Assembly: GCA_036386675.1 (NCBI GenBank)
Contig: DASVVE010000016.1
Span: forward strand, 122,561-186,560
Source: Chloroflexia bacterium
Lineage (GTDB): Bacteria; Chloroflexota; Chloroflexia; QHBQ01; JADMIH01
Reading direction: 5' to 3'
DNA: 64,000 nucleotides
Below, piece after piece: positions 5,851 to 44,955 of the stretch. The notes beneath the pieces are model-generated. The model was not told the DNA's origin and did no database searches. It saw only the letters and a program-made list of their open reading frames with translations. The position numbers and the translations under genes are program-made. Position 1 is the stretch's first letter; the number at the start of each line of letters is the position of its first letter.

Positions 5851-6912
5851 ATGAAGATACTCTCTGTTGTAGGCGCACGGCCGCAATTTATCAAGGCTGC
5901 TCCCGTGAGCCGGGCTATGTCGAGGGCAGGCGTCGAAGAAGTGCTCTTGCATACGGGGCAACACTACGACCCCGCGATGTCCGAGGTCTTTTTCGCGGAG
6001 CTGGACATTCCCGCGCCACGGCACAACCTGGGGGTAGGTTCTGGCTCGCACGCGGGCCAGACCGCTGCTATGCTTGTGGGCATCGAGCAGGTGCTGCTGG
6101 AAGAACGGCCCGATTACCTGCTGATATACGGCGACACCAACTCCACGCTGGCCGGGGCGCTGTCGGCAGCCAAGCTGGGCGTGCCGGTGGCCCACATCGA
6201 GGCGGGGTTGCGCTCCTACAACCGCGCTATGCCGGAGGAGATCAACCGCGTGGTGGCCGACAGCCTATCCAGCCTGCTCTTCTGCCCGACGGCTGCAGCT
6301 TCGGCCAATCTGCAACGCGAAGGCATCACGGGCGGTGTGTTCGTGATCGGTGACGTGATGTACGACGCCATACTCGACTCTCTGCCACGTGCCGAGGACA
6401 TGGCGTCCTCGCTCCTGTCGCGGATTGGAGTGGAGAGCGGTGGGTACTTGCTGGCGACGGTGCACCGGGCGTCCAACACCGACGACCCACGCAACCTGGC
6501 TAACATAGTAGGGGCGCTGAGCGACTCCGGCATGCCTGTGGTCTTCCCGGTACACCCACGCACCCGGAGGGCGCTGGAACAGGCGGGCGTCGTCCCCGGC
6601 GAAAACGTGCGGCAGGTGGAGCCGGTGTCCTACCTTGAGATGGTGGCGCTGGAAAAGCACGCCCGCAAGATACTCACCGACTCGGGAGGCGTGCAAAAGG
6701 AGGCGATGTGGCTGGCGGTGCCCTGCATCACCATGCGCGACGAGACCGAATGGGTGGAAACGGTGGAGCTGGGTTGGAATACCCTCACCGGCACCGACCC
6801 CGCCCGCATACGAGCCGCCATACAAGCCCCGCGTATCCATTCCACCCCACCCGACGTGTATGGTGATGGACACGCGGCAGAGAATATCGTGAATGTGATA
6901 TGTAACACGTAA
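5851..6912 (+). CDS. UDP-N-acetylglucosamine 2-epimerase (non-hydrolysing), WecB/MnaA family
   Basis: MKILSVVGARPQFIKAAPV...HTGQHYD...GDTNSTLAGALSAAKLGVPVAHIEAGLRS. The ORF-track start at 5758 is upstream of the true ATG at 5851. Confidence 0.85.
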   Translation: MKILSVVGARPQFIKAAPVSRAMSRAGVEEVLLHTGQHYDPAMSEVFFAELDIPAPRHNLGVGSGSHAGQTAAMLVGIEQVLLEERPDYLLIYGDTNSTLAGALSAAKLGVPVAHIEAGLRSYNRAMPEEINRVVADSLSSLLFCPTAAASANLQREGITGGVFVIGDVMYDAILDSLPRAEDMASSLLSRIGVESGGYLLATVHRASNTDDPRNLANIVGALSDSGMPVVFPVHPRTRRALEQAGVVPGENVRQVEPVSYLEMVALEKHARKILTDSGGVQKEAMWLAVPCITMRDETEWVETVELGWNTLTGTDPARIRAAIQAPRIHSTPPDVYGDGHAAENIVNVICNT

Positions 6913-8065: not shown

Positions 8066-9100
8066 ATGAGCAACCCGCCCGGCATGGACTCCCGCCCTCC
8101 GAAGCTAGCCGTCATAGGCGCAGGCTCGATGGGCCGCAACCACCTGCGCGTGCTGAACGACCTGGAGTCGGTGGATCTGGTGGGCGTGGCCGATGCAGAC
8201 CTTGCCACCGCCGAGCGGGTCGCCCGCCGCTTCCACATCTCGGCTTATGGTAGCTACGCCGATCTGCTGGACAGGGAACGGCCTGATGGGGTGGTAGTGG
8301 CGGTGCCCACGGTGCTGCACCGGGAGGTGACGCTGGCGGCCATAGAACGCGGGGTGCATGTGCTGGTGGAGAAGCCGATAGCATTCACGGTAGCCGAGGG
8401 CCAGGAGATGATCGAGGCGGCCCGGCAGGCAGGGGTGATCCTCACGGTGGGGCATATCGAGCGCTACAACCCGGCGATACTGGAGTTGCACAAGCGGCTC
8501 AGGGAGCAGCAGCTTGGCCGGGTCTTCCAGATGAACGCACGCAGGCTCGGCCCCTTCCCGCCCCGCGTGCGTGACGTTGGTGTGGTCATCGATCTGGCGA
8601 CGCACGATGTCGACATAATGCGCTTCTTGAGCGGCTCGGAAGTGGTGCGGGTGCAGGCCGAGACCGCCCGCCGCATCCACACCGAGCACGAGGACCTGCT
8701 GTCCGGGCTGCTCCGTTTCGAGAACGACTCGATTGGTGTGCTAGATATTAACTGGCTGACGCCCACCAAGATACGCGAGCTGATGATTACCGGGGAGCGG
8801 GGCGCGTTCCAGGTGAACTACCTGACCCAGGACCTATACTTCTACGAGAATAATTACGCCAAGACCGACTGGGACACCATCTCGAACATCGAGGGGGTGA
8901 GCGAGGGCGACATGGTCCGCCTACGCATCGAGAAGACCGAACCGCTACGCGTGGAACTTGACCGATTCGCCCGCGCCATCAGGGGCGAAGAAGTGTCCAT
9001 AGTATCGGGCGAGGACGGGCTGCACGCCCTGCACGTAGCTACAAAAATTGTGGAGTCGGGGCTAGAGGGTAGGGCCATCTATTTGAGCGAGGAAGGTTAG
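8066..9100 (+). CDS. Gfo/Idh/MocA-family NAD-dependent oxidoreductase (WbpB-like UDP-sugar 3-dehydrogenase)
   Basis: N-terminal Rossmann fold KLAVIGAGSMGRNHL and the EKP motif of the Gfo/Idh/MocA family. Adjacent to the aminotransferase. Confidence 0.8.
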   Translation: MSNPPGMDSRPPKLAVIGAGSMGRNHLRVLNDLESVDLVGVADADLATAERVARRFHISAYGSYADLLDRERPDGVVVAVPTVLHREVTLAAIERGVHVLVEKPIAFTVAEGQEMIEAARQAGVILTVGHIERYNPAILELHKRLREQQLGRVFQMNARRLGPFPPRVRDVGVVIDLATHDVDIMRFLSGSEVVRVQAETARRIHTEHEDLLSGLLRFENDSIGVLDINWLTPTKIRELMITGERGAFQVNYLTQDLYFYENNYAKTDWDTISNIEGVSEGDMVRLRIEKTEPLRVELDRFARAIRGEEVSIVSGEDGLHALHVATKIVESGLEGRAIYLSEEG

Positions 9101-9103
9101 GTC

Positions 9104-10408
9104 TTGGAGAAAGCAGCGCGGAGTGAGTACAGAGTAGCGGTCGTGGGCCTGGGCAAGATCGGCCTGCCCCTGGCGGCGCAGTTCGCGCACAACGGCCTGG
9201 AGGTCATGGGCTGCGACATATCCCAAGAGGTAGTAGATACCATCAACTCCGGGCACTCCCACGTCAAAGAGGAGCCGGGGCTTGAAGAGATGGTAGCCGA
9301 GGGAGTGAGCGCGGGCCGCCTTACCGCCACCATCGACACGTCCGCCGCCGTAAGCCGCTGCAACGTGGTAGTTGTGATTGTACCGCTGATGGTGGACGAG
9401 GGGCGCAACATCGATTATCGAGCTATTGATTCCGCCACTCGCTCGGTCGCTGAGGGGTTGCAGCGCGAAACGCTGGTCATATACGAAACGACGCTGCCCG
9501 TGGGCACCACGCGCACCCGGCTGGGTTCGATGTTGGAGCAGGGTTCAGGGCTGGCTGCCGGCCGCGATTTCTGCCTGGCGTTCAGCCCTGAGCGCGTCTA
9601 CAGCGGTCGTATATTCAGCGACTTGCACAAGTACCCCAAGGTGGTCGGCGGGGTGACGCCGGAGTGCACAGCTTCTGCCGAGCGTTTCTACGCCGTGGCC
9701 CTGGAAGGCGCGCCCGTATTGCCCATGCGCGATGCCGATACCGCCGAGTTCGTCAAGCTGGTCGAGACCACCTATCGCGACGTGAACATCGCCCTCGCCA
9801 ACGCCTTCGCCCGCTTCGCCGCCGAGCGCGACATACCTGTGCTAGAGGCGATTGCGGCGGCCAACACGCAGCCTTTCTCCCACGTCCACCGGCCCGGCAT
9901 AGCGGTGGGCGGGCACTGCATCCCTGTCTACCCCTACTTCCTGATGAACAGTACCGAGGACGACGGTATGTCGCTGGTACGGCGCGCCCGCGAGCTTAAC
10001 GACAGCATGGTAGCGTGGGCGCTCGACCGGCTTGAGGAGTCGCTGGGCGGGTTGAGCGGCAAGAGGGTGCTGGTGCTGGGGCTAGCATACCGGGAGAACG
10101 TCAAGGAAACGGCTTTTTCCGGGGCCGTCCGCCTGCTGAGCGAGTTGAAGGCGCGGGGCGCGGTGCCTCTCATCAACGACCCGCTCTACAGCACCGAGGA
10201 ACTCGCCCGCTACGCCGAGCCTAGCCAACTGGACGACCTGCCTGCCTTCGATGCGCTGGTGCTCCAGGCGTACCACGAGGAATACCGCAACCTCGATTGG
10301 ATCCGCATGTCAGAGCATGGTTGCAAGGTGGTGCTCGACGGACGCAACGCGCTCGCTCGCGCCGAAATAGAGGGCTCCGGTATGCGCTACACCGGCATAG
10401 GGCAATAG
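9104..10408 (+). CDS. UDP-sugar 6-dehydrogenase (UDP-GlcNAc/ManNAc dehydrogenase, WbpA/WecC family)
   Basis: RVAVVGLGKIGLPLAAQF with nucleotide-sugar dehydrogenase central and C-terminal domains. TTG start. Confidence 0.85.
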   Translation: MEKAARSEYRVAVVGLGKIGLPLAAQFAHNGLEVMGCDISQEVVDTINSGHSHVKEEPGLEEMVAEGVSAGRLTATIDTSAAVSRCNVVVVIVPLMVDEGRNIDYRAIDSATRSVAEGLQRETLVIYETTLPVGTTRTRLGSMLEQGSGLAAGRDFCLAFSPERVYSGRIFSDLHKYPKVVGGVTPECTASAERFYAVALEGAPVLPMRDADTAEFVKLVETTYRDVNIALANAFARFAAERDIPVLEAIAAANTQPFSHVHRPGIAVGGHCIPVYPYFLMNSTEDDGMSLVRRARELNDSMVAWALDRLEESLGGLSGKRVLVLGLAYRENVKETAFSGAVRLLSELKARGAVPLINDPLYSTEELARYAEPSQLDDLPAFDALVLQAYHEEYRNLDWIRMSEHGCKVVLDGRNALARAEIEGSGMRYTGIGQ

Positions 10409-10456
10409 CCCGTGAGTTCCGATGCCTGACGCTGTCAAGAAGGTGGGTGTTCGCGC

Positions 10457-11647
10457 ATGAAGGTCCTCTGTATATTCGGCACGCGGCCGGAGGCGATCAA
10501 GATGGCCCCTGTGCTCCACCACTTGCGCCAATACCCGGGCACCATCAGCGCCAAGGCTTGCGTGACCGGGCAGCACAGGCAGATGCTCGACCAGGTGCTA
10601 CAGGTCTTCGACATCCAACCCGATTACGACCTGTCTATCATGACTGAGGACCAGACCCTTGCTACACTGACGGCCAGGGCACTTACCGCCCTCGACCCGG
10701 TCATCGCGCAGGAACGGCCGGACTGGATATTGGTGCAGGGCGATACCACCACCGCTATGGTGGGTGCGCTGGCGGCCTTCTACCATCGCCTGCAAGTGGG
10801 GCACGTCGAAGCCGGGTTGAGGACCTGGAACAAATACCATCCCTATCCCGAAGAGATCAACCGGAGAATAGTGGATTGCATCGCCGATCTGCATTTTGCC
10901 CCGACACAATGGGCGGCTGATAATTTGTTGCGGGAGGGGGTGCCGGAGAGTGGCGTGCTCGTCAGTGGGAACACCGTTGTAGACGCTCTCATCTCCGTCA
11001 CCGAAAAGCCGCTGTCCGAGCAGACCGAGCGTATACTTAGGGAGTTGGGAGTTTCCCCGGAAAGAGGTCACTCGGACCCGACAAGTGGCCTGTCGCTCGC
11101 GGCACGGGGTCACGGTCCGCCATTGCTCCTGGTAACTGCCCACCGCCGCGAGAACTTCGGCGGCCCCCTGGAGAACATATGTGACGCCCTGGGTGAAATC
11201 GCCAGGCGGCGGAGTGACGTACGCATCGTGTTCCTGGTGCATCTGAACCCCAACGTCCAGAAGGTAGTGCGTTCTCGCCTGGGGGAAGCAAAGAACATAA
11301 GCCTGATACCGCCCGTTGACTATCAGACGATGGCCCACCTGATGAAGCATTCCTACCTGATACTTACCGATTCGGGCGGGCTACAGGAGGAAGCGCCGAC
11401 GTTCCACGTGCCTGTACTGGTGATGCGCGAAACCACCGAGCGGCCGGAGGCCCTTGAGGCTGGTACGGCCCGGCTGGTAGGCACTCAGGCTGAGGATATA
11501 GTAGATCACGTGTCGCGCCTTCTCGACCGTTCGGATGAATATCGCGCCATGTCGGGGGCGCCGAACCCTTTTGGTGACGGGCATGCCGCCCCACGTATAG
11601 TGAAGGCCCTGATGGAGCGCAGCTCCAGGTTAGCGTACAGAGGCTGA
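10457..11647 (+). CDS. Second UDP-N-acetylglucosamine 2-epimerase paralog (WecB/WbpI-like)
   Basis: MKVLCIFGTRPEAIKMAPV...TGQHRQMLDQVL...GDTTTAMVGALAAFY...VEAGLRT. Confidence 0.85.
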   Translation: MKVLCIFGTRPEAIKMAPVLHHLRQYPGTISAKACVTGQHRQMLDQVLQVFDIQPDYDLSIMTEDQTLATLTARALTALDPVIAQERPDWILVQGDTTTAMVGALAAFYHRLQVGHVEAGLRTWNKYHPYPEEINRRIVDCIADLHFAPTQWAADNLLREGVPESGVLVSGNTVVDALISVTEKPLSEQTERILRELGVSPERGHSDPTSGLSLAARGHGPPLLLVTAHRRENFGGPLENICDALGEIARRRSDVRIVFLVHLNPNVQKVVRSRLGEAKNISLIPPVDYQTMAHLMKHSYLILTDSGGLQEEAPTFHVPVLVMRETTERPEALEAGTARLVGTQAEDIVDHVSRLLDRSDEYRAMSGAPNPFGDGHAAPRIVKALMERSSRLAYRG

Positions 11648-11677
11648 TGTATAGTCCTTCTCCTGTAACAGCATAGA

Positions 11678-13018
11678 TTGAACAAGTTTTTACCACCCTG
11701 GGCCAGAAATAAGCGTGCGGCGATGCTGCCGATAGGGTCGGTACGAGCGCGCCTGGCCTCCGGCACCTTCTGGGCGGTAATCGGGGCGGTACTATCGCAG
11801 GTGCTGGCATTGGTGGCTGCCGTCATTGTGGCGAGGTTGTTGGGCCGCACGGGCTTCGGGGAGCTAGGCATCCTCATCAGCACGGTCGGCACGTTCGGGA
11901 TAGTCGCGGGACTGGGGCTGGGTACCACCGCCACCAAGTACGTGGCCGAGCTACGTACAAGCGACCCGGCGCGTGCGGGGCAAATCCTCGGCTTATCAAT
12001 CTGGACTGCCGTGGTGACGGGCAGCCTTGCATCGGTGCTGCTCTTTGTGCTCGCGCCGGTGCTTGCGGCGGACGTCATCAACGCCCCTCACCTGGTGAAC
12101 GAGCTACGCCTGAGTTGCGGAGTGCTATTCTTCAGCGCCCTCAACGGCGCGCAACTGGGCGTGCTCTCGGGTCTTGAGGCGTTCAAACCCCTTGCCTACT
12201 TGAACGTGGTACGAGGGTTGCTTCAATTCCTCCTGACCGTAGCGGGGGTGGTGCTGTTCGGCTTTGTGGGAGCCGTGCTTGCGCTCGTAGCGGGCAATGC
12301 TCTGGCCTGCGCGCTCTATGAAGTGGCGGTTCGACGTGAGTGCCGCCGCGCCAACATCAAGTTTGAGTACCGGGGTACTCGTTCCGAGTGGCGCATTTTG
12401 TGGACGTTCGCCTTTCCCGCTTTCATGTCCGGAGCGATGTATACGCCTGTTGTCTGGGCGGGGAACGCGGCGCTGGCTAATCAGCCGAACGGGCTGGATG
12501 AACTCGGCTTGTTCAACGCCGCCAACCAGTGGCGCATGGCGATGATGTTCCTCCCCGGCGTGCTGGGTCAGGTTGTGATGCCTATCTTATCCAACTTATA
12601 CGGCGAGGGACGTGGCAGTAGCTATCGCAAGGTGTTGTTCGGCAACCTGGCGATTACGTTTGTCCTGAGCTTTGGCGCGGCGCTCGTACTTATCCTGGCC
12701 GCGCCCCTCATCATGTCGGCCTACGGCAGCGACTTCACTCAGGGCACGCAGGTACTCATACTCATGCTCCTTTCAACGGTACTCACATCAACCTCGGGCG
12801 TGGTCGGATACAGCATAGCGAGCCAGGACCGCATGTGGCACGCCTTCTGGCTCAATCTCATATGGGCGGCGGCTTTCGGCCTCTTCGTCTACCTCTTCAT
12901 CGGTCTGAAAGCTTATGGGCTGGCGCTGGCGTACCTGCTCTCCTACGCTATACACGCCGTCACGAGCACGTTGTATATGGTCTGGTCCCTTAAAAACAAG
13001 CGAGTGGCCGATGCCTAG
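11678..13018 (+). CDS. MOP-superfamily oligosaccharide flippase (Wzx-like)
   Basis: 446 aa with ~12 TM and a Polysacc_synt-like profile. TTG start at 11678; an alternative ATG is at 11723. Confidence 0.7.
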   Translation: MNKFLPPWARNKRAAMLPIGSVRARLASGTFWAVIGAVLSQVLALVAAVIVARLLGRTGFGELGILISTVGTFGIVAGLGLGTTATKYVAELRTSDPARAGQILGLSIWTAVVTGSLASVLLFVLAPVLAADVINAPHLVNELRLSCGVLFFSALNGAQLGVLSGLEAFKPLAYLNVVRGLLQFLLTVAGVVLFGFVGAVLALVAGNALACALYEVAVRRECRRANIKFEYRGTRSEWRILWTFAFPAFMSGAMYTPVVWAGNAALANQPNGLDELGLFNAANQWRMAMMFLPGVLGQVVMPILSNLYGEGRGSSYRKVLFGNLAITFVLSFGAALVLILAAPLIMSAYGSDFTQGTQVLILMLLSTVLTSTSGVVGYSIASQDRMWHAFWLNLIWAAAFGLFVYLFIGLKAYGLALAYLLSYAIHAVTSTLYMVWSLKNKRVADA

Positions 13019-37039: not shown

Positions 37040-37780
37040 TTATGCGCTGGCGAGGTCCGAGGGTTTGCCACCGGAGACCACGCGGAGGTGGGAGGGCGGT
37101 TCTTCTGGGTTATTAGCAGCGTCTTCCAGGGGCACTTCTATGACGCCCTGGTCCGGGCGTGGTACCTCGTGGCAATGGCGGCAGCGCGCTTCGTAGTTTT
37201 CTTTGGCCCCGACCATGATTATTGGGTCGTCGTAGTTGGCTGGTCGTCCGTCGATGAGGCGCTGGGTGCGGCTGGCGGGTGCCCCACACGCCACGCAAAT
37301 CGCCTGCAGCTTGTCCACCATCTCGGCCTCGGCCATGAGCAGGGGCATAGGGCCGAACGGCTCTCCCCTGAAGTCGAGGTCAAGCCCCGCCGCGATTACC
37401 CTCACGCCGTTGTGGGTCAGCCGCTTGCACAGGTCAACCACACCCTCATCGAAGAACTGCGCCTCGTCAATGGCGACCACGGTGGTGTCAGGCTCTACCA
37501 GGCCCTCTAGCTCGGTGGAGCCACCTACGGGGACGGCTGTGTGCAGCACGCCGTTATGCGAGGCGACCTGCACGGCTGAATAGCGCGTGTCGATGCGAGG
37601 CTTGAAGACCTGCACCTTCTGCCGGGCAATCTGCGCCCTTTTGACTCGGCGGATCAACTCCTCCGTCTTACCGGAGAACATACTGCCGCAGACCACTTCC
37701 AGCCACCCGCCCGCGTAATGCTTGGGGTGTGGGCCGAGCGGCCCCTGGTCCTGCATGTAGCGTTGCACGTAATCTCCCAT
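37040..37780 (-). CDS. tdk: Thymidine kinase
   Basis: [15 protein letters not shown]-loop and a C-terminal Zn ribbon (CVACG...CRHCH). Start MGDYV, preceded by aaggtggg. Confidence 0.9.
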
Positions 37781-37891
37781 CTTCCCACCTTTCAACCGGG
37801 ATAACCGCAATCATACGGTGGAAAAGGTGGCACGCTCTCTGTTTGCGCATCGATGCGAGGTATTGTTTTGCACAAGCTGAGCCAGGTTAGG

Positions 37892-39488: not shown

Positions 39489-40088
39489 CTAAGGACTAGC
39501 GTGGAGAGTGTTGAGGATCAGAGAAGCATTGCGCGCCCAAGTCTCACGATAGAAGGCGAGGATTAAGAGGTCCATGTAATGGCCGTTCCAAAAGACGTGC
39601 TCCCGCAATCGCCCTTCTTCAACGAAGAACCGCCCAATGCCGCTCTTGAAGCCCTGGTAGCTCTCTTCAGTGCTCTCCATATAGATCTTTCTGAAGGGCC
39701 AGGCGTTGAACGCATAGTTGAAGCCCAGCGCTATGCCCTCGGCAATCAGCCCGGCCCCCTGCACTTCGGGCACGCCAATCGCTGAAAGGTAGGCGAAGCC
39801 ATCCCGAAAGTTGGGCGAAGTAATTGCGATTAGTCCCAAAGGTTGCCCGGAATCGACGCCTTCGACAATAAACTGGGCAAGGACGCTCTCCCATAGTGAC
39901 CCGGCGATCTTGTCTGGGCTAGGCGTGGCCCCGGCGAAACGGACACGCCCGCCGGACAACGGCGAGGTCATAAGGTCATAAAGAAAGAAGCTGTCCTGGT
40001 CTGAAATGACCCGCAGGCGGATGTGCCGCGTGCGCATCAGCGGGAAGGGACGTAGTGGCTGTTGTCCGGTAGCGGAGTCGTCAGACAA
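39489..40088 (-). CDS. GNAT-family acetyltransferase (Acetyltransf_3/RimL-like)
   Basis: TRHIRLRVISDQD...LYDLM N-terminus typical of PF13302. Last gene of the MauE-like operon. Confidence 0.7.
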   Translation of the reverse strand: MSDDSATGQQPLRPFPLMRTRHIRLRVISDQDSFFLYDLMTSPLSGGRVRFAGATPSPDKIAGSLWESVLAQFIVEGVDSGQPLGLIAITSPNFRDGFAYLSAIGVPEVQGAGLIAEGIALGFNYAFNAWPFRKIYMESTEESYQGFKSGIGRFFVEEGRLREHVFWNGHYMDLLILAFYRETWARNASLILNTLHASP

Positions 40089-40812
40089 GACTTATGGCCC
40101 CGGCCAGAATGAACAGGCTGGCAGCTACCGAGACGAAGCTGTCAGAGCCGCGAATGAAGAGGCTGGCGGACTGCAAGCGGTTGGAGGCGACCAGTTGCAT
40201 CATAAGCGGCACGGCTCGCCCGAGTCCAAACCCCAGGGCCACAAGCAGAGCATTTGCAAGGGTGAATTGTGCAAGGAGTAGTGCGAGCAGCAGAATATAG
40301 GGTGCGGCTGAGGGCACGTAGGTGCGCAGTCCCGTTCCTAGTTCCACTCCGAACCGGTAGGCACCGCGAACGAGGCTCCCACCGAACACCTCGGCAGGGA
40401 TCAGGCGCCGCGACTCAGGTAAAGAGATGATGCTCGACAGCGGGCCATCCTTGGACAACAAGACAAAGACCGCTGCTATGCCAAGCATGGCAGCCCGCAC
40501 CTCAGCACTGAGCGGTTCGGCAAAACCGCTCAGTACCCACGCGCAAAATCCTGTGAGCAAGGCTCCATGCGAAGTCCCCACCAGGTATGCGGCGACGATC
40601 TTATAGTCGAACAGGGACCGATGTCTCTTGGGCGGCAGCAACACGGCTGCGCTGTTAAGACTTCAAATCGACCCCGCGAGCGACAACCCCGCAGCGAAGC
40701 CTATGCTCAGTGTAATGAGTGTTTCGGTCCGCACGAGCGCGGTCGCACCGATAAGCCCGGCGAGGATCACCCAGATCCACGAAACTGGTCTTGTCAAGGC
40801 ACTTATGGACAT
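40081..40812 (-). CDS. Integral membrane protein interrupted by a single in-frame TGA (plus 40663-40665). Possibly a CcdA/DsbD-like thiol-disulfide transporter; either a pseudogene or recoded.
   Basis: ORFs 40663-40851 and 40081-40644 are in the same frame, separated only by tga: ...FAAGLSLAGSI*SLNSAAVLLPPKRH.... ~8 TM in total. The resemblance to the CcdA motif AGLxSFxSPCVLPLLP is loose. Confidence 0.35.
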
Positions 40813-41447
40813 AGCGTTAGCTGGTCGTCGCAGGACACGAGGCCCTGGCATATAGTAGGCTCCCAGTAATCGTTACCGTCAAACTTCTTGTAGCCATCGT
40901 GGCACCGGAATACCGCCGACTGCTGGCAGTTCCCACAAGCGCCCACCTTCCACTTCCAGGCATCTTTGCCGTTGCAAACGTCAGGCTCTCTGTCTTTGTA
41001 CTGAATACTACCTCGCAGGCCGGTGAAATGCCAGTTGTACGATGGATTGTTGACTGGATCGGCAGCCTGCTCGGCGCACGTAGCACAAAACCAGGGGTCC
41101 ATATGGTCTGGAGCGAAGCCAAAGCAAGCTTCGTTGCAGGTACCGCCATATGGAGGATAGCCTGCACAATCGTAGTAGGTGGTGTAACTTGCACTGGCTG
41201 CCCGTTCGAGCGTCCCGATATTCGCTAATTCGCCGAGCGCTCCGAGAGCGCCTCCTCTTGCGGCCGTTGCCGTCTGCAAGCGCTGCACAAGTTGCATTCC
41301 GAGAGGTACCCCAATCAAGCTCAAGATGTTGCCCTTGCGCATTGGATGGTCCGGGTATGCTTCCACAACGTCCGAGTCGGTGCTGGGCCGCCGCCCCAAC
41401 CTTTCCGCTCCTTCGATAGTAGGAATGTCCTGTATGTCAAAGTTCAT
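40803..41447 (-). CDS. 12-Cys protein with an N-terminal ~90-aa non-hydrophobic region and a ~125-aa C-terminal Cys/Trp-rich domain
   Basis: Strong RBS aggagg 6 nt upstream of ATG 41447. C-terminal domain YYDCAGYPPYGGTCNEACFG...DPWFCATCAEQ...VCNGKDAWKWKVGACGNCQQ...RCHDGY...YWEPTICQGLVSCDDQLTLCP. No N-terminal signal peptide. Confidence 0.55.
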   Translation of the reverse strand: MNFDIQDIPTIEGAERLGRRPSTDSDVVEAYPDHPMRKGNILSLIGVPLGMQLVQRLQTATAARGGALGALGELANIGTLERAASASYTTYYDCAGYPPYGGTCNEACFGFAPDHMDPWFCATCAEQAADPVNNPSYNWHFTGLRGSIQYKDREPDVCNGKDAWKWKVGACGNCQQSAVFRCHDGYKKFDGNDYWEPTICQGLVSCDDQLTLCP

Positions 41448-41494
41448 GGTGGTCCTCCTGTCATTTGATCCCCACTAGCTAGATGGAATATCGA

Positions 41495-42013
41495 CTATGC
41501 AACCGCCAGCAGTTTATTAAGCGAATCCAACGAATTGATTGGCGTTGCTTTGAGGACTCTGCCATCTGCGCCTGCTACGAGTGCAAAAGGGGTGACCCGG
41601 ATCCCAAGCTCGGTACTGATTTGCGGCCCGGCGTGCAGGACGGTGGCATTTGAGGGAATGTCCGGGGCAGGCGAGGGCAACTGATCGACCCAGGCAACGG
41701 CCAGGGGGGCGTTCGACGGCAGATGCAGATGCTGTAGCTCGTTCAATACGCGCGCGCATGAAGTGCAATTCGAGGAGAGGAATACAAGCACCCGTGGTAC
41801 TACAGGCGACTCCCCGAGGAGGTCCTGTAATCGTCTACCGAGCAAGTTAGCATAGGGTGTGTTTTCCTTGGAAACGGACGCGGCCCGTTCGAGTCGCTGT
41901 AGCCGCGAGTGCAGGTTCCCGATTACCAGCATGAGCAAGAGCACCGCAACCCAGGTGACAAAGAGAGCGGCGAAAGCGAAGCTTGACCGGGAGTCCAGCA
42001 AAGTATCAAACAT
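41495..42013 (-). CDS. Membrane-anchored thioredoxin-like protein (TlpA/ResA/MauD-like), CxxC = CTSC
   Basis: N-terminal TM FAFAALFVTWVAVLLLMLVIG, then a redoxin-fold region VLVFLSSNCTSCARVL. Confidence 0.7.
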   Translation of the reverse strand: MFDTLLDSRSSFAFAALFVTWVAVLLLMLVIGNLHSRLQRLERAASVSKENTPYANLLGRRLQDLLGESPVVPRVLVFLSSNCTSCARVLNELQHLHLPSNAPLAVAWVDQLPSPAPDIPSNATVLHAGPQISTELGIRVTPFALVAGADGRVLKATPINSLDSLNKLLAVA

Positions 42014-42581
42014 TGTTGCTACCTTCTGTTTGGCGTAGCCCCGCCGAGAAGGCGGGGAGCATGAAGACGGCTGTGGTTAGTGTCATACCCCAGGCGAGGG
42101 GCAATGCGGCAGCGAAACCTAATAGCTCATATCCGGCATCCAGCGAGCGGCCAAATCCGAGTCCGGTAACTACCAGACCCAGCACCGACATCAACAGAAG
42201 CGCGGAAGCTGGAACGATGGAGGCCGGTGTTAGGGGGCCTGCGAAGGGCGAGCAGCCACAGGAGGTAATACCCGCCGGCCTTCTGAGCAGCAGACGGATA
42301 TATAACACGAACGCAGCCCCGGCTACAGTGGAGAGCGCGAAGAGAGGTAATGCCACTGGCGCAAACTCTGAATTTAGCAGCACCAACACGAACGCACCGC
42401 CTGCTACAGTTTCCAGGACTGTAACCAGGATTGAAGCCGGGGTCGCAAGCCGGGTTGGAACGATGCCATGAGAGCGCACAAGGCTTCTAAAGTGAGCGAA
42501 GCCCAGCAGATGGCCCATGCCGCCGATCAAAAGTGTCGTAGCAACATATCCGAGACTAAGGTAGTAGGCGAAAGTCATCAA
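42006..42581 (-). CDS. MauE-like (methylamine-utilisation protein MauE / DoxX-like) membrane protein with a CGC motif
   Basis: 191 aa, 4-5 TM, with ...LETVAGGAFVLVLL... and GITSCGCSPFAGP resembling the MauE xDCGCFG signature. Confidence 0.55.
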   Translation of the reverse strand: MMTFAYYLSLGYVATTLLIGGMGHLLGFAHFRSLVRSHGIVPTRLATPASILVTVLETVAGGAFVLVLLNSEFAPVALPLFALSTVAGAAFVLYIRLLLRRPAGITSCGCSPFAGPLTPASIVPASALLLMSVLGLVVTGLGFGRSLDAGYELLGFAAALPLAWGMTLTTAVFMLPAFSAGLRQTEGSNNV

Positions 42582-43285
42582 CGGTTACTTCTCGGCGACC
42601 ATTCCACCCGCAAGCTCTGCGTCATAGCCAGCATCTCTCGTGAGTCGGCTTCAGTGAGCGGATCAATCCTCACGACAGATGTTGGACTCACGAATATCAA
42701 CGCATTGCTGCCCTCTCGAATACGAAAGAGCTCTCCAGTGTTGGTCGCGAGTCCTCTCATCCTGGGGATGCCTTGAAGTGTACTGTGGATTGCAGGCTGG
42801 ATGTTGAGCACGCCCAATCCGGGGATTTCTTTGATCACTTGAGGCTCTCGCGGCTGCGGTGTAATAGGGGAGTCGATAGCGACCCCTGCCGAGCGTTCGC
42901 TAAACTGGAGGGTATCGAAGACCTCAATGAGGCGCTCTCGCTCCGTGCCGACCATCGAGGTAGTGAGGCAGCCGCTCTTGCCTTCCCAGGCACCAACGGT
43001 CAAGTCCCTGAAGCCGCCTGTCGCCGTTGCCATCCTCACCTCGGCGACCCGGAGCTTCCCGCCTTTGAGGTCGTAGTCCTCTACCGCCTTACGTGTAATT
43101 GCGTTATTTCGGCGTACTGCCTTCTCGACGGAGGCGGTATAACCAGCAGGATATACCGCGAATGGGTGCGCACGCATAAGCGAGGGAACGATTGCCCAGC
43201 CGGTCGTGCTGATTCGCGTGGACAGATCAGCGTCCGCTTCAACCGTAATTATGGACCCGTCGATTGCTAGATGTTCCACCCTCAT
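42578..43285 (-). CDS. Hypothetical soluble protein (235 aa), first gene of the MauE-like operon
   Basis: No recognisable motif. Overlaps the MauE-like start by 4 nt; a ~490-bp AT-rich region lies upstream. Confidence 0.5.
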   Translation of the reverse strand: MRVEHLAIDGSIITVEADADLSTRISTTGWAIVPSLMRAHPFAVYPAGYTASVEKAVRRNNAITRKAVEDYDLKGGKLRVAEVRMATATGGFRDLTVGAWEGKSGCLTTSMVGTERERLIEVFDTLQFSERSAGVAIDSPITPQPREPQVIKEIPGLGVLNIQPAIHSTLQGIPRMRGLATNTGELFRIREGSNALIFVSPTSVVRIDPLTEADSREMLAMTQSLRVEWSPRSNR

Positions 43286-43779: not shown

Positions 43780-44955
43780 CTAACACGACTTGTCCGTGAC
43801 GGGCAGTGCTGCCTCAATCCTGACTGAGTGGCTGGACAGCCAGCTACGCCCCTTCAGGAGGAGCGCGCCGCACAACAACGCCACCAGCGCTGACATGGCA
43901 AGGTATGTTGTGTGGACCCCGAACCCGTCGGCCAGCAGCCCCAGTCCAGGCTCGGTTACCGTCAGGAAGACTGTAGCAAATAGGGACTGTATCGAGAGGA
44001 CCGTAGCCCGCGCATCATCCGGTACGCGGCCCTGGATGACGGCAAGCAGCACCGGCTGGGTAAGCGCGAACAGAAAGGCGGCCATAGCGGCCATGATGAG
44101 GATTGGTATGACCGGGGCTACACCGAGCAGCAGCAGGCAGAATACCAGGAATAGAGGCACGCCAAGGAGGAGTCTGTCTGTGCCGATGCTCCTCTGTGCC
44201 CCTGGCACGGCAAGCGACCCGGCGATGCTCATCCCTTGCACGCCCACCATGACCACCCCCAACGCTACTACCGGCAGACCCACAGCGAGCGTATAGGGCT
44301 GCAGGAAGACCTCCACATAGAAGCCGACGCAACCCAACACGACCAGGTACGCGATCGCCCAACGCAGAGTAGCGTGTTCGCGTAACGCTGATACGGCCTG
44401 TATGACGATCTGTGTGTACGGCGGGTCCTTGCCTGCGTGCTCCTTTCCTTCAGCGACCTGAGATGCCCCACGCGTTTCTCTGAAGGAGAGGATGGGGATT
44501 AGCGTTGCGCCGATAAGGGCGCTCGTGATGAAGGCGGGTAGCACCAGGTCTACGGAGGCGATGGCCCCCACCGCCAGGCCCGCGATCATGGCGCTGACCA
44601 TTCTGATTGCCCTGGCATGCCCGGCGATCTTCGCGTACTCACCTTCTCTGCCCAGGATTTTCATCGTCTCGAAGAGCAGGGCTTCGTCCGCGCCCGAGCT
44701 AAAGGTCACAGCCAACCCGCCGATGAACTGCGCGGAGGCCATCACCAGGAAGTCACCGGAGAGGGCGAACACCAGCCAAATTACGCAGCCAATGACGGCG
44801 CTGAGTGACAGCGAGAGCTTACGGCCGTACTTGTCGGCTACGATGCCAGTAGGTATCTCAAACAGGAAGATGCCGAGCCAGAAGGGGAGGTCGAGGAGGG
44901 TGACTTCCGTAAGACTGTACCCATAGTGCTGCTGTAGAAAGACCACCCACAGCAC
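43780..44955 (-). CDS. MFS transporter
   Basis: 12-TM pattern with a DKYGRK loop motif. The annotated GTG start likely truncates the N-terminus: the upstream in-frame sequence ...RLRLLTTEQKYRPNIRSYFLLSGLRGAATGTPIV looks like MFS TM1, but the only candidate start there is CTG. Confidence 0.75.
   Translation of the reverse strand: MLWVVFLQQHYGYSLTEVTLLDLPFWLGIFLFEIPTGIVADKYGRKLSLSLSAVIGCVIWLVFALSGDFLVMASAQFIGGLAVTFSSGADEALLFETMKILGREGEYAKIAGHARAIRMVSAMIAGLAVGAIASVDLVLPAFITSALIGATLIPILSFRETRGASQVAEGKEHAGKDPPYTQIVIQAVSALREHATLRWAIAYLVVLGCVGFYVEVFLQPYTLAVGLPVVALGVVMVGVQGMSIAGSLAVPGAQRSIGTDRLLLGVPLFLVFCLLLLGVAPVIPILIMAAMAAFLFALTQPVLLAVIQGRVPDDARATVLSIQSLFATVFLTVTEPGLGLLADGFGVHTTYLAMSALVALLCGALLLKGRSWLSSHSVRIEAALPVTDKSC

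Follow-up and report, generated by a model that had tools for sequence, protein, structure and literature searches.

A window of 64,000 nucleotides from a Chloroflexia bacterium (contig DASVVE010000016.1, positions 122,561 to 186,560 of the forward strand) was analyzed with respect to a minus-strand gene for a predicted membrane protein that contains an in-frame TGA. Two open reading frames (ORFs), 40663-40851 (upstream) and 40081-40644 (downstream), share one frame on this strand, and a single frame runs from an ATG at 40812 to a stop at 40081 with TGA 40665-40663 as its sole interruption. The translation reads MSISALTRPVSWIWVILAGLIGATALVRTETLITLSIGFAAGLSLAGSI from ATG 40812, then the TGA, then SLNSAAVLLPPKRHRSL and onwards, a stretch of 193 codons that ends at the stop 40083-40081. 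After the TGA, six sense codons (SLNSAA) precede the GTG listed as start of the downstream ORF. That two ORFs in one frame are parted by a TGA had been pointed out in a sequence-only reading of the window, whose peptide string included these six residues, and was borne out by sequence and translation. The ATG at 40810-40812 is the probable start, as homologues start at the equivalent place. It overlaps the end of the upstream gene for a Cys-rich protein (TAA 40805-40803, overlap sequence ATGTCCATAA), which suggests translational coupling. We consider it very likely that 40812-40081 is one intact gene, in which UGA is decoded as selenocysteine (Sec) by means of SelB together with a SECIS (selenocysteine insertion sequence). 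The putative product is a polytopic membrane selenoprotein of 243 residues (49 codons, the UGA and 193 codons), with the proposed Sec codon (40663-40665, residue 50) within an invariant S-x-U-x-x-N-S motif.

To follow the TGA through evolution, DNA of relatives was collected from reference genomes and metagenomes and by single look-ups, giving a final tally of 56 loci (numbered with the prefix L) that represent 49 distinct contexts. The hosts named in the records belong to four phyla and comprise Chloroflexia, several Acidobacteriota families, one Gemmataceae planctomycete and many Actinomycetota, and protein identity to the window copy goes down to ~30%. At the aligned codon, TGA was found in 48 of the 49 contexts and TGC in one, while TAA and TAG did not occur. 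As TGA serves as the true stop of the six genes of the surrounding cassette (see below) in no more than 128 of 177 cases (72%), this pattern is far beyond chance. In all loci with enough upstream DNA, the frame continues upstream through the stop, which lies within (S/A)GS(I/V/M/T)-stop-(S/T)xNS. Nowhere in the family is conservation higher than in the residues on both sides of the stop, and S48, U/C50, N53 and S54 are invariant (alignment A4).

The sequence-only reading had also offered a simple nonsense mutation as an explanation. A nonsense pseudogene, in which a recent TGA mutation inactivated a multi-transmembrane gene in this genome, would agree with a lone in-frame stop in an otherwise open frame and with the finding that no Sec machinery is encoded in the 64 kb of the window. 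Because the TGA and its flanks are conserved across homologues, with TGA in nearly all contexts over four phyla and with conserved residues and a coding substitution pattern on both sides, this explanation was rejected and is regarded as having practically no chance of being correct. A recently spread dead element is excluded by the protein identities of 30-75% among the homologues.

Codon-position entropies were 0.89/0.58/1.48 for the 23 codons before the TGA and 0.91/0.70/1.47 for codons +10 to +50 after it, and this same pattern on either side indicates that both sides are translated in this frame. In a homology search with the joined protein, 120 relatives were obtained, all called at ~187 residues and all covering the post-TGA part only, and in NCBI records the two halves are annotated as separate hypothetical proteins. 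An exhaustive profile search yielded 1,014 family clusters at 50% identity. Among 150 listed cluster representatives the called N-termini were ragged (profile positions 1-38), as expected if gene callers pick the first start that they find after a stop. A homology search with an N-terminal query across the site matched short upstream 'ORFs' only and gave no additional read-through forms.

These annotations as two ORFs would be expected if the TGA were a genuine stop that separates a 49-residue membrane peptide from a ~187-residue protein starting at GTG 40644, with the hairpin described below acting in termination-reinitiation coupling. Such an arrangement would also fit the GTG itself, which is invariant in the main group of relatives and lies in the hairpin loop 18 nt past the UGA, and the preference for TGA stops in high-GC genomes (72%). 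However, the Micromonospora homologue L018 and the Streptomyces homologue L054 have no in-frame ATG, GTG or TTG for at least 24 codons after the TGA, yet in both the conserved residues start immediately after it. Because distant members lack a start there, and because the Cys form of the protein is a single fused polypeptide, termination-reinitiation was rejected and seems very improbable to us. It is further opposed by the family's most conserved residues flanking the stop, by the missing Shine-Dalgarno-like sequence ahead of the GTG, by the consistent absence of TAA and TAG from the site and by the clustering of tRNA-Sec, selD, selA and selB with the gene.

The Cys form is represented by the homologues P0152 and P0267, which read ...GHSLSDSV-C-SRNSA... 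with a frame that is continuous through the site, and in the DNA of locus L050 the aligned codon is TGC. Together with P0288-P0291 they constitute one small, closely related clade of non-identical sequences, and Cys forms are rare (~6 clusters versus >1,000). The Cys-form locus L050 (267-2202) has kept the CxxC protein of the cassette and encodes a longer, 293-residue Cys-rich protein in which a twin-arginine signal (RRRFLG) is evident; on the flanks of the locus, genes for a TetR regulator and an ArsC-family protein take the place of the GNAT gene. In the divergent member L051 (9989-10000) the site reads ...SGSV-U-A-C-N..., with a Cys two residues past the Sec (UxC), an arrangement that is absent from the other TGA-form members examined.

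Downstream of the UGA, the sequence-only reading had proposed to look for a SECIS-like stem-loop within ~40 nt, and on the minus strand such a hairpin is indeed present at 40650-40635. It starts 12 nt past the UGA (+13 to +28) and is formed by the arm GCAGC (40650-40646), the loop CGUGUU (40645-40640) and the arm GCUGC (40639-40635). GCAGC-CGUGUU-GCUGC was the only consensus structure returned by RNAalifold, and in the main-group alignment 100% of the hairpin cells are paired. Third codon positions in 36 distinct main-group sequences are free at +3, +6, +9 and from +30 onwards, whereas those from +12 to +27 are essentially frozen, with a third-position entropy of 0.15 within the hairpin versus ~1.4 elsewhere. 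One compensatory pair (C-G to U-A) was found in L012 and L026, and two pairs have G-U variants. The loop contains an invariant GUG (window 40635-40650 corresponds to columns 16-31 of alignment A3).

Hairpins of 5 bp or more that begin anywhere from +8 to +16 were detected at all 48 TGA sites, and 15 different arm pairs occur among them; at the other in-frame positions of the same genes, taken as background, the rate was 21%, and the Cys form had no such hairpin. Divergent branches have a hairpin at the same offset but with other sequences, namely UCAGC/GCUGA, CAGCAC-GGUC-GUGCUG, GUGGGCU/AGCUCAC, GGACC/GGUCC and CAGCGC/GCGCUG. Most of the divergent actinomycete-type members that were read have a second hairpin (L017-L019, L049, L052, L054-L057), while none was clear in L051 and L053. 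By inspection, pairing in the second hairpin of L017-L019 is kept despite synonymous changes of Arg codons.

Genes for the Sec machinery, which the sequence-only reading had named as a further check, were found beside homologues (Streptomyces, L015 and L018) and not within the window's 64 kb. In the complete Streptomyces genomes CP109013.1 and CP108674.1 (L054 and L055), selD, tRNA-Sec, selA (identified by PF03841) and selB (identified by PF25461/PF09107) lie 4-5 kb past the cassette. In the actinobacterial metagenome-assembled genome L015, a tRNA-Sec is located between a divergent selD and the TGA gene, directly upstream of the latter; it was called by ARAGORN and matched Rfam RF01852 with 74.6 bits (gathering score 47). 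In Micromonospora sp. PLK6-60 (L018), selD (TIGR00476, 382 bits) follows a few hundred bases downstream.

Because no Sec machinery is found in the 64 kb of the window and the hairpin is of small size and inconspicuous thermodynamics, a further explanation to be weighed is that the organism of the window reads through the UGA independently of Sec, by a near-cognate tRNA for Trp, Cys or Arg and with stimulation by the hairpin. Against it, the sole sense codon at the site is that for Cys, the expected counterpart of Sec, and the window shares an identical motif and hairpin with main-group homologues, among them L015, in which the gene lies beside tRNA-Sec and selD. Moreover, a dedicated Sec cluster accompanies the Streptomyces cassette, and we judge Sec-independent read-through to be improbable. 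We infer that the organism of the window possesses Sec machinery.

Several observations weigh against decoding as Sec. The rarity of Cys forms is atypical for selenoprotein families (cf. PMC13188914). With 5 bp and a consensus of ~-7 kcal/mol the hairpin is short, and folds of single sequences were no better than shuffles (z-scores not significant), so that thermodynamics alone gives no support for a SECIS. A register slid by 3 nt, with a 5-bp stem and a 3-nt loop, pairs equally well (100% of cells paired), and within the main group there is only one independent compensatory event. Furthermore, a search of the window's 64 kb revealed no selA, selB, selD or tRNA-Sec, and the Thermomonospora and Actinoallomurus loci have the cassette with no sel genes within 10 kb.

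Taken together, the conserved TGA, the Cys homologue, the hairpin and the homologue-linked sel genes support the option of a selenocysteine or read-through site that the sequence-only reading had raised, and decoding as Sec is preferred. SelB would deliver Sec-tRNASec at UGA 40665-40663, recruited by the hairpin at 40650-40635 that begins 12 nt after the UGA, to which it presumably binds. The product would be a 243-residue integral membrane protein whose selenol is placed in the second hydrophobic segment, within the polar stretch S-G-S-x-U-S-x-N-S. Judged by the sequences compared here, the gene is the founder of a large, previously unrecognized family of putative selenoproteins that nearly always have Sec and very rarely Cys.

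For the 243-residue product, about 6-7 helices were predicted, and an AlphaFold model of the Cys form (mean predicted local distance difference test score 83.7) has a confident all-helical core and a weak N-terminus. Sec is predicted to lie in that half of the second membrane segment which faces the cytoplasm, based on hydrophobicity and on a strongly basic PPKRHRS loop that follows the Sec-bearing segment. Residue 50 is the only conserved Sec/Cys column (alignment A4). Further invariant polar residues are found in FG-x-E-x-G-T-G-x-R-T-Y and G-F-G-x-G-R, which suggests that these two motifs may contribute to an active or binding site. No Pfam or NCBIfam match was obtained for the window, Streptomyces, Micromonospora and Cys-form sequences (Pfam was searched with 23 members), and a profile search of PDB sequences found no relative.

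The gene is part of a strictly syntenic cassette of six genes, in which it is the fifth (window 39489-43285, minus strand, with equivalents in L001-L047). The first gene (42578-43285, 235 residues) has no family match, and its product is 49-75% identical in every locus with enough flanking DNA. It is followed by a syntenic gene for a MauE-family membrane protein (42006-42581; PF07291, 43.9 bits versus a cutoff of 27) and by a gene for a membrane-anchored CxxC protein with the motif NCTSC (41495-42013), a divergent thioredoxin-fold or MauD-like protein that is syntenic in all main-group loci. Homologues of the CxxC protein gave sub-threshold Thioredoxin_2 and Thioredoxin matches and a faint MauD match (E 0.009, 15.5 bits versus a cutoff of 188.6). 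The fourth gene (40803-41447) encodes a Cys-rich protein of 214 residues that is probably exported, as homologues have Tat-type signals; the window copy had no Pfam or PDB match. The sixth gene (39489-40088) encodes a GNAT-type acetyltransferase-like protein and has a start that overlaps the selenoprotein gene's stop. The encoded protein is 36% identical (E 1e-32) to the L052 homologue, which matches Acetyltransf_3 above threshold, and GNAT is generally the best-conserved cassette member (58-78% identity). The cassette is common to Chloroflexota, Acidobacteriota, a Gemmataceae planctomycete and Actinomycetota, and this shared synteny suggests a horizontally mobile functional module.

Some loci deviate from this arrangement or have additional neighbors. 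In L015 (4485-7183) only the genes for the selenoprotein, which is without the first N-terminal helix, and GNAT are present beside tRNA-Sec and selD, and the MauE, thioredoxin-like and Cys-rich genes are absent; the two may therefore form a functional unit of their own, possibly tied to selenium handling. In L052 (10585-13496) and L053 (2192-4523) an AMP-binding enzyme is encoded beside GNAT, with a PP-binding carrier protein in addition in L053, and an acyl-activation and transfer step could thus be linked to the system. The Cys-rich protein of Streptomyces has C-terminal peptidoglycan-binding domains, and three peptidoglycan-binding or peptidase genes (M15, Rv2525c-like and M74) lie between the cassette and the sel cluster in L054 (8819-14378) and L055 (8834-14390). 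These peptidoglycan-related genes hint at a cell-wall-related function. In L018, a small ORF with a YDSACGDC motif, DCC1-like by eye only, lies between the selenoprotein gene and selD (6341-6685), and an FxsB-family radical SAM/SPASM peptide maturase with an HExxH hydroxylase extension is encoded ~2.7 kb downstream (9016-11817). In the window, genes assigned by eye to thymidine kinase (37040-37810) and to the ribosomal proteins L31 (38073-38408), L27 (38534-38830) and L21 (38938-39252), all on the minus strand, lie directly downstream of the cassette, and a transporter gene resembling the major facilitator superfamily, likewise assigned by eye, is found upstream of it (43780-44955).

Regarding function, the gene context points, with less force than for the decoding of the UGA, to a redox role together with the cassette partners, which is the function we prefer. 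The selenoprotein would be the membrane redox component of the cassette and would form selenenyl-sulfide intermediates with thiols of the MauE-like and CxxC partners, and this redox exchange would service the exported Cys-rich protein. Alternatively, a role in selenium handling is suggested by the adjacency of selD and selC in L015. A more far-reaching proposal is put forward tentatively, and we rather doubt that it holds in full. It states that this is a major membrane family for which Sec is obligate, that in Streptomyces and further aerobic bacteria of soil selD, selC, selA and selB are kept and co-transferred as an island mainly for it, and that it might be the catalytic core of a previously unrecognized envelope system that matures or services the exported Cys-rich, peptidoglycan-associated protein by a chemistry in which Cys cannot replace Sec.

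If the preferred decoding as Sec is true, annotation as two hypothetical ORFs is wrong for >1,000 protein clusters (at 50% identity) from bacteria of soil and sediment, among them those of many strains in culture that belong to Streptomyces, Micromonospora, Nonomuraea, Actinomadura and Thermomonospora. The selenoproteome would gain an integral-membrane, almost Cys-free family of the kind that is missed by Cys/Sec-pair searches, and a reason for Sec machinery in actinomycetes would be at hand. As actinomycetes are genetically tractable, the function of Sec and the minimal SECIS are open to direct test. The analysis also brings to attention the conserved six-gene cassette with its MauE-like, thioredoxin-like, Cys-rich exported, selenoprotein and GNAT members.

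A review of May 2026 lists 119 prokaryotic selenoprotein families in its Table 1, each with a domain identifier (PMC13188914), and BSepDB was built from the same catalog. None of these 119 families corresponds to the protein described here, which had no match to their models (PMC13188914). Cys/Sec-pair searches depend on abundant Cys homologues (PMC13188914), which explains why a family nearly free of Cys forms was overlooked. In the literature on Streptomyces or Micromonospora selenoproteins, no description of this family was found. The recoding itself follows an ordinary mechanism, and what is new is the protein family with its location in the membrane and its cassette.

Like other genes decoded by SelB and a SECIS, with E. 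coli fdhF as the prototype, the gene has an in-frame UGA and, at a short and constant spacing behind it, a small stem-loop whose loop contains G/U. A Cys homologue exists, and genomes that host homologues contain selA, selB, selC and selD. The minimal SECIS of E. coli is an upper stem-loop of ~17 nt located 11 nt past the UGA; the hairpin of the window comprises 16 nt and is located 12 nt past it. Classical SECIS loops are resembled by the GGUC loop of L052 and by the GGUCU loop of the second hairpin in L017-L019. In contrast to classical SECIS elements, the stem has 5-7 bp and no obvious bulged U, its sequence differs among branches and it is not detected by Rfam, which had no match in the window. 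Unlike the known examples, the encoded protein is unrelated to any listed selenoprotein family.

The sequence-only reading had seen a loose resemblance of the flanking sequence to CcdA/DsbD, which found no support. No match to DsbD or DsbD_2 (PF02683/PF13386) was obtained at E<=10 in Pfam searches with 23 members, and the window protein had no DsbD-family Pfam match at E<=1. CcdA/DsbD proteins have two redox Cys, one per pseudo-symmetric repeat, whereas here there is one conserved Sec/Cys and the second region, 'P-S-x-A-P', is free of Cys. Fold matches to CcdA/DsbD were weak, and those to RnfA/NqrE were as good or better and equally weak. CcdA/DsbD membership was therefore rejected, as there is no profile match and only a single conserved redox residue.

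Among known membrane selenoproteins, YedE-type genes often lie near selD. YeeE/YedE (GUxSG), the MerT-like protein, the SO_0444 efflux transporter, SaoP and TsoB (Table 1, PMC13188914) resemble the present family in that they, too, are integral to the membrane and have Sec within or close to a membrane segment. The family differs from them in having no PF04143, PF02411 or NCBIfam match and in its motif and neighborhood. Another point of comparison is GrdA, the glycine reductase selenoprotein A, a family that is not known to do without Sec to any extent and has few Cys homologues or none. Cys counterparts are rare in the present family too, but GrdA is small and soluble, has a CxxU motif and occurs in anaerobes, whereas the protein described here resides in the membrane, belongs to aerobic soil phyla and has a single Sec that lacks a partner Cys.

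MauE and MauD are encoded by accessory genes of methylamine dehydrogenase, which has the disulfide-rich MauA. The cassette differs from the mau cluster in that there are no homologues of MauA, MauB or MauG and no MauA- or MauB-like match among its other proteins, and we know of no counterpart of the selenoprotein, GNAT or the first gene in mau clusters. What the two share is the succession of a MauE-family protein, a membrane-anchored CxxC protein and a Cys-rich, Tat-like exported protein, which echoes that of MauE, MauD and MauA.
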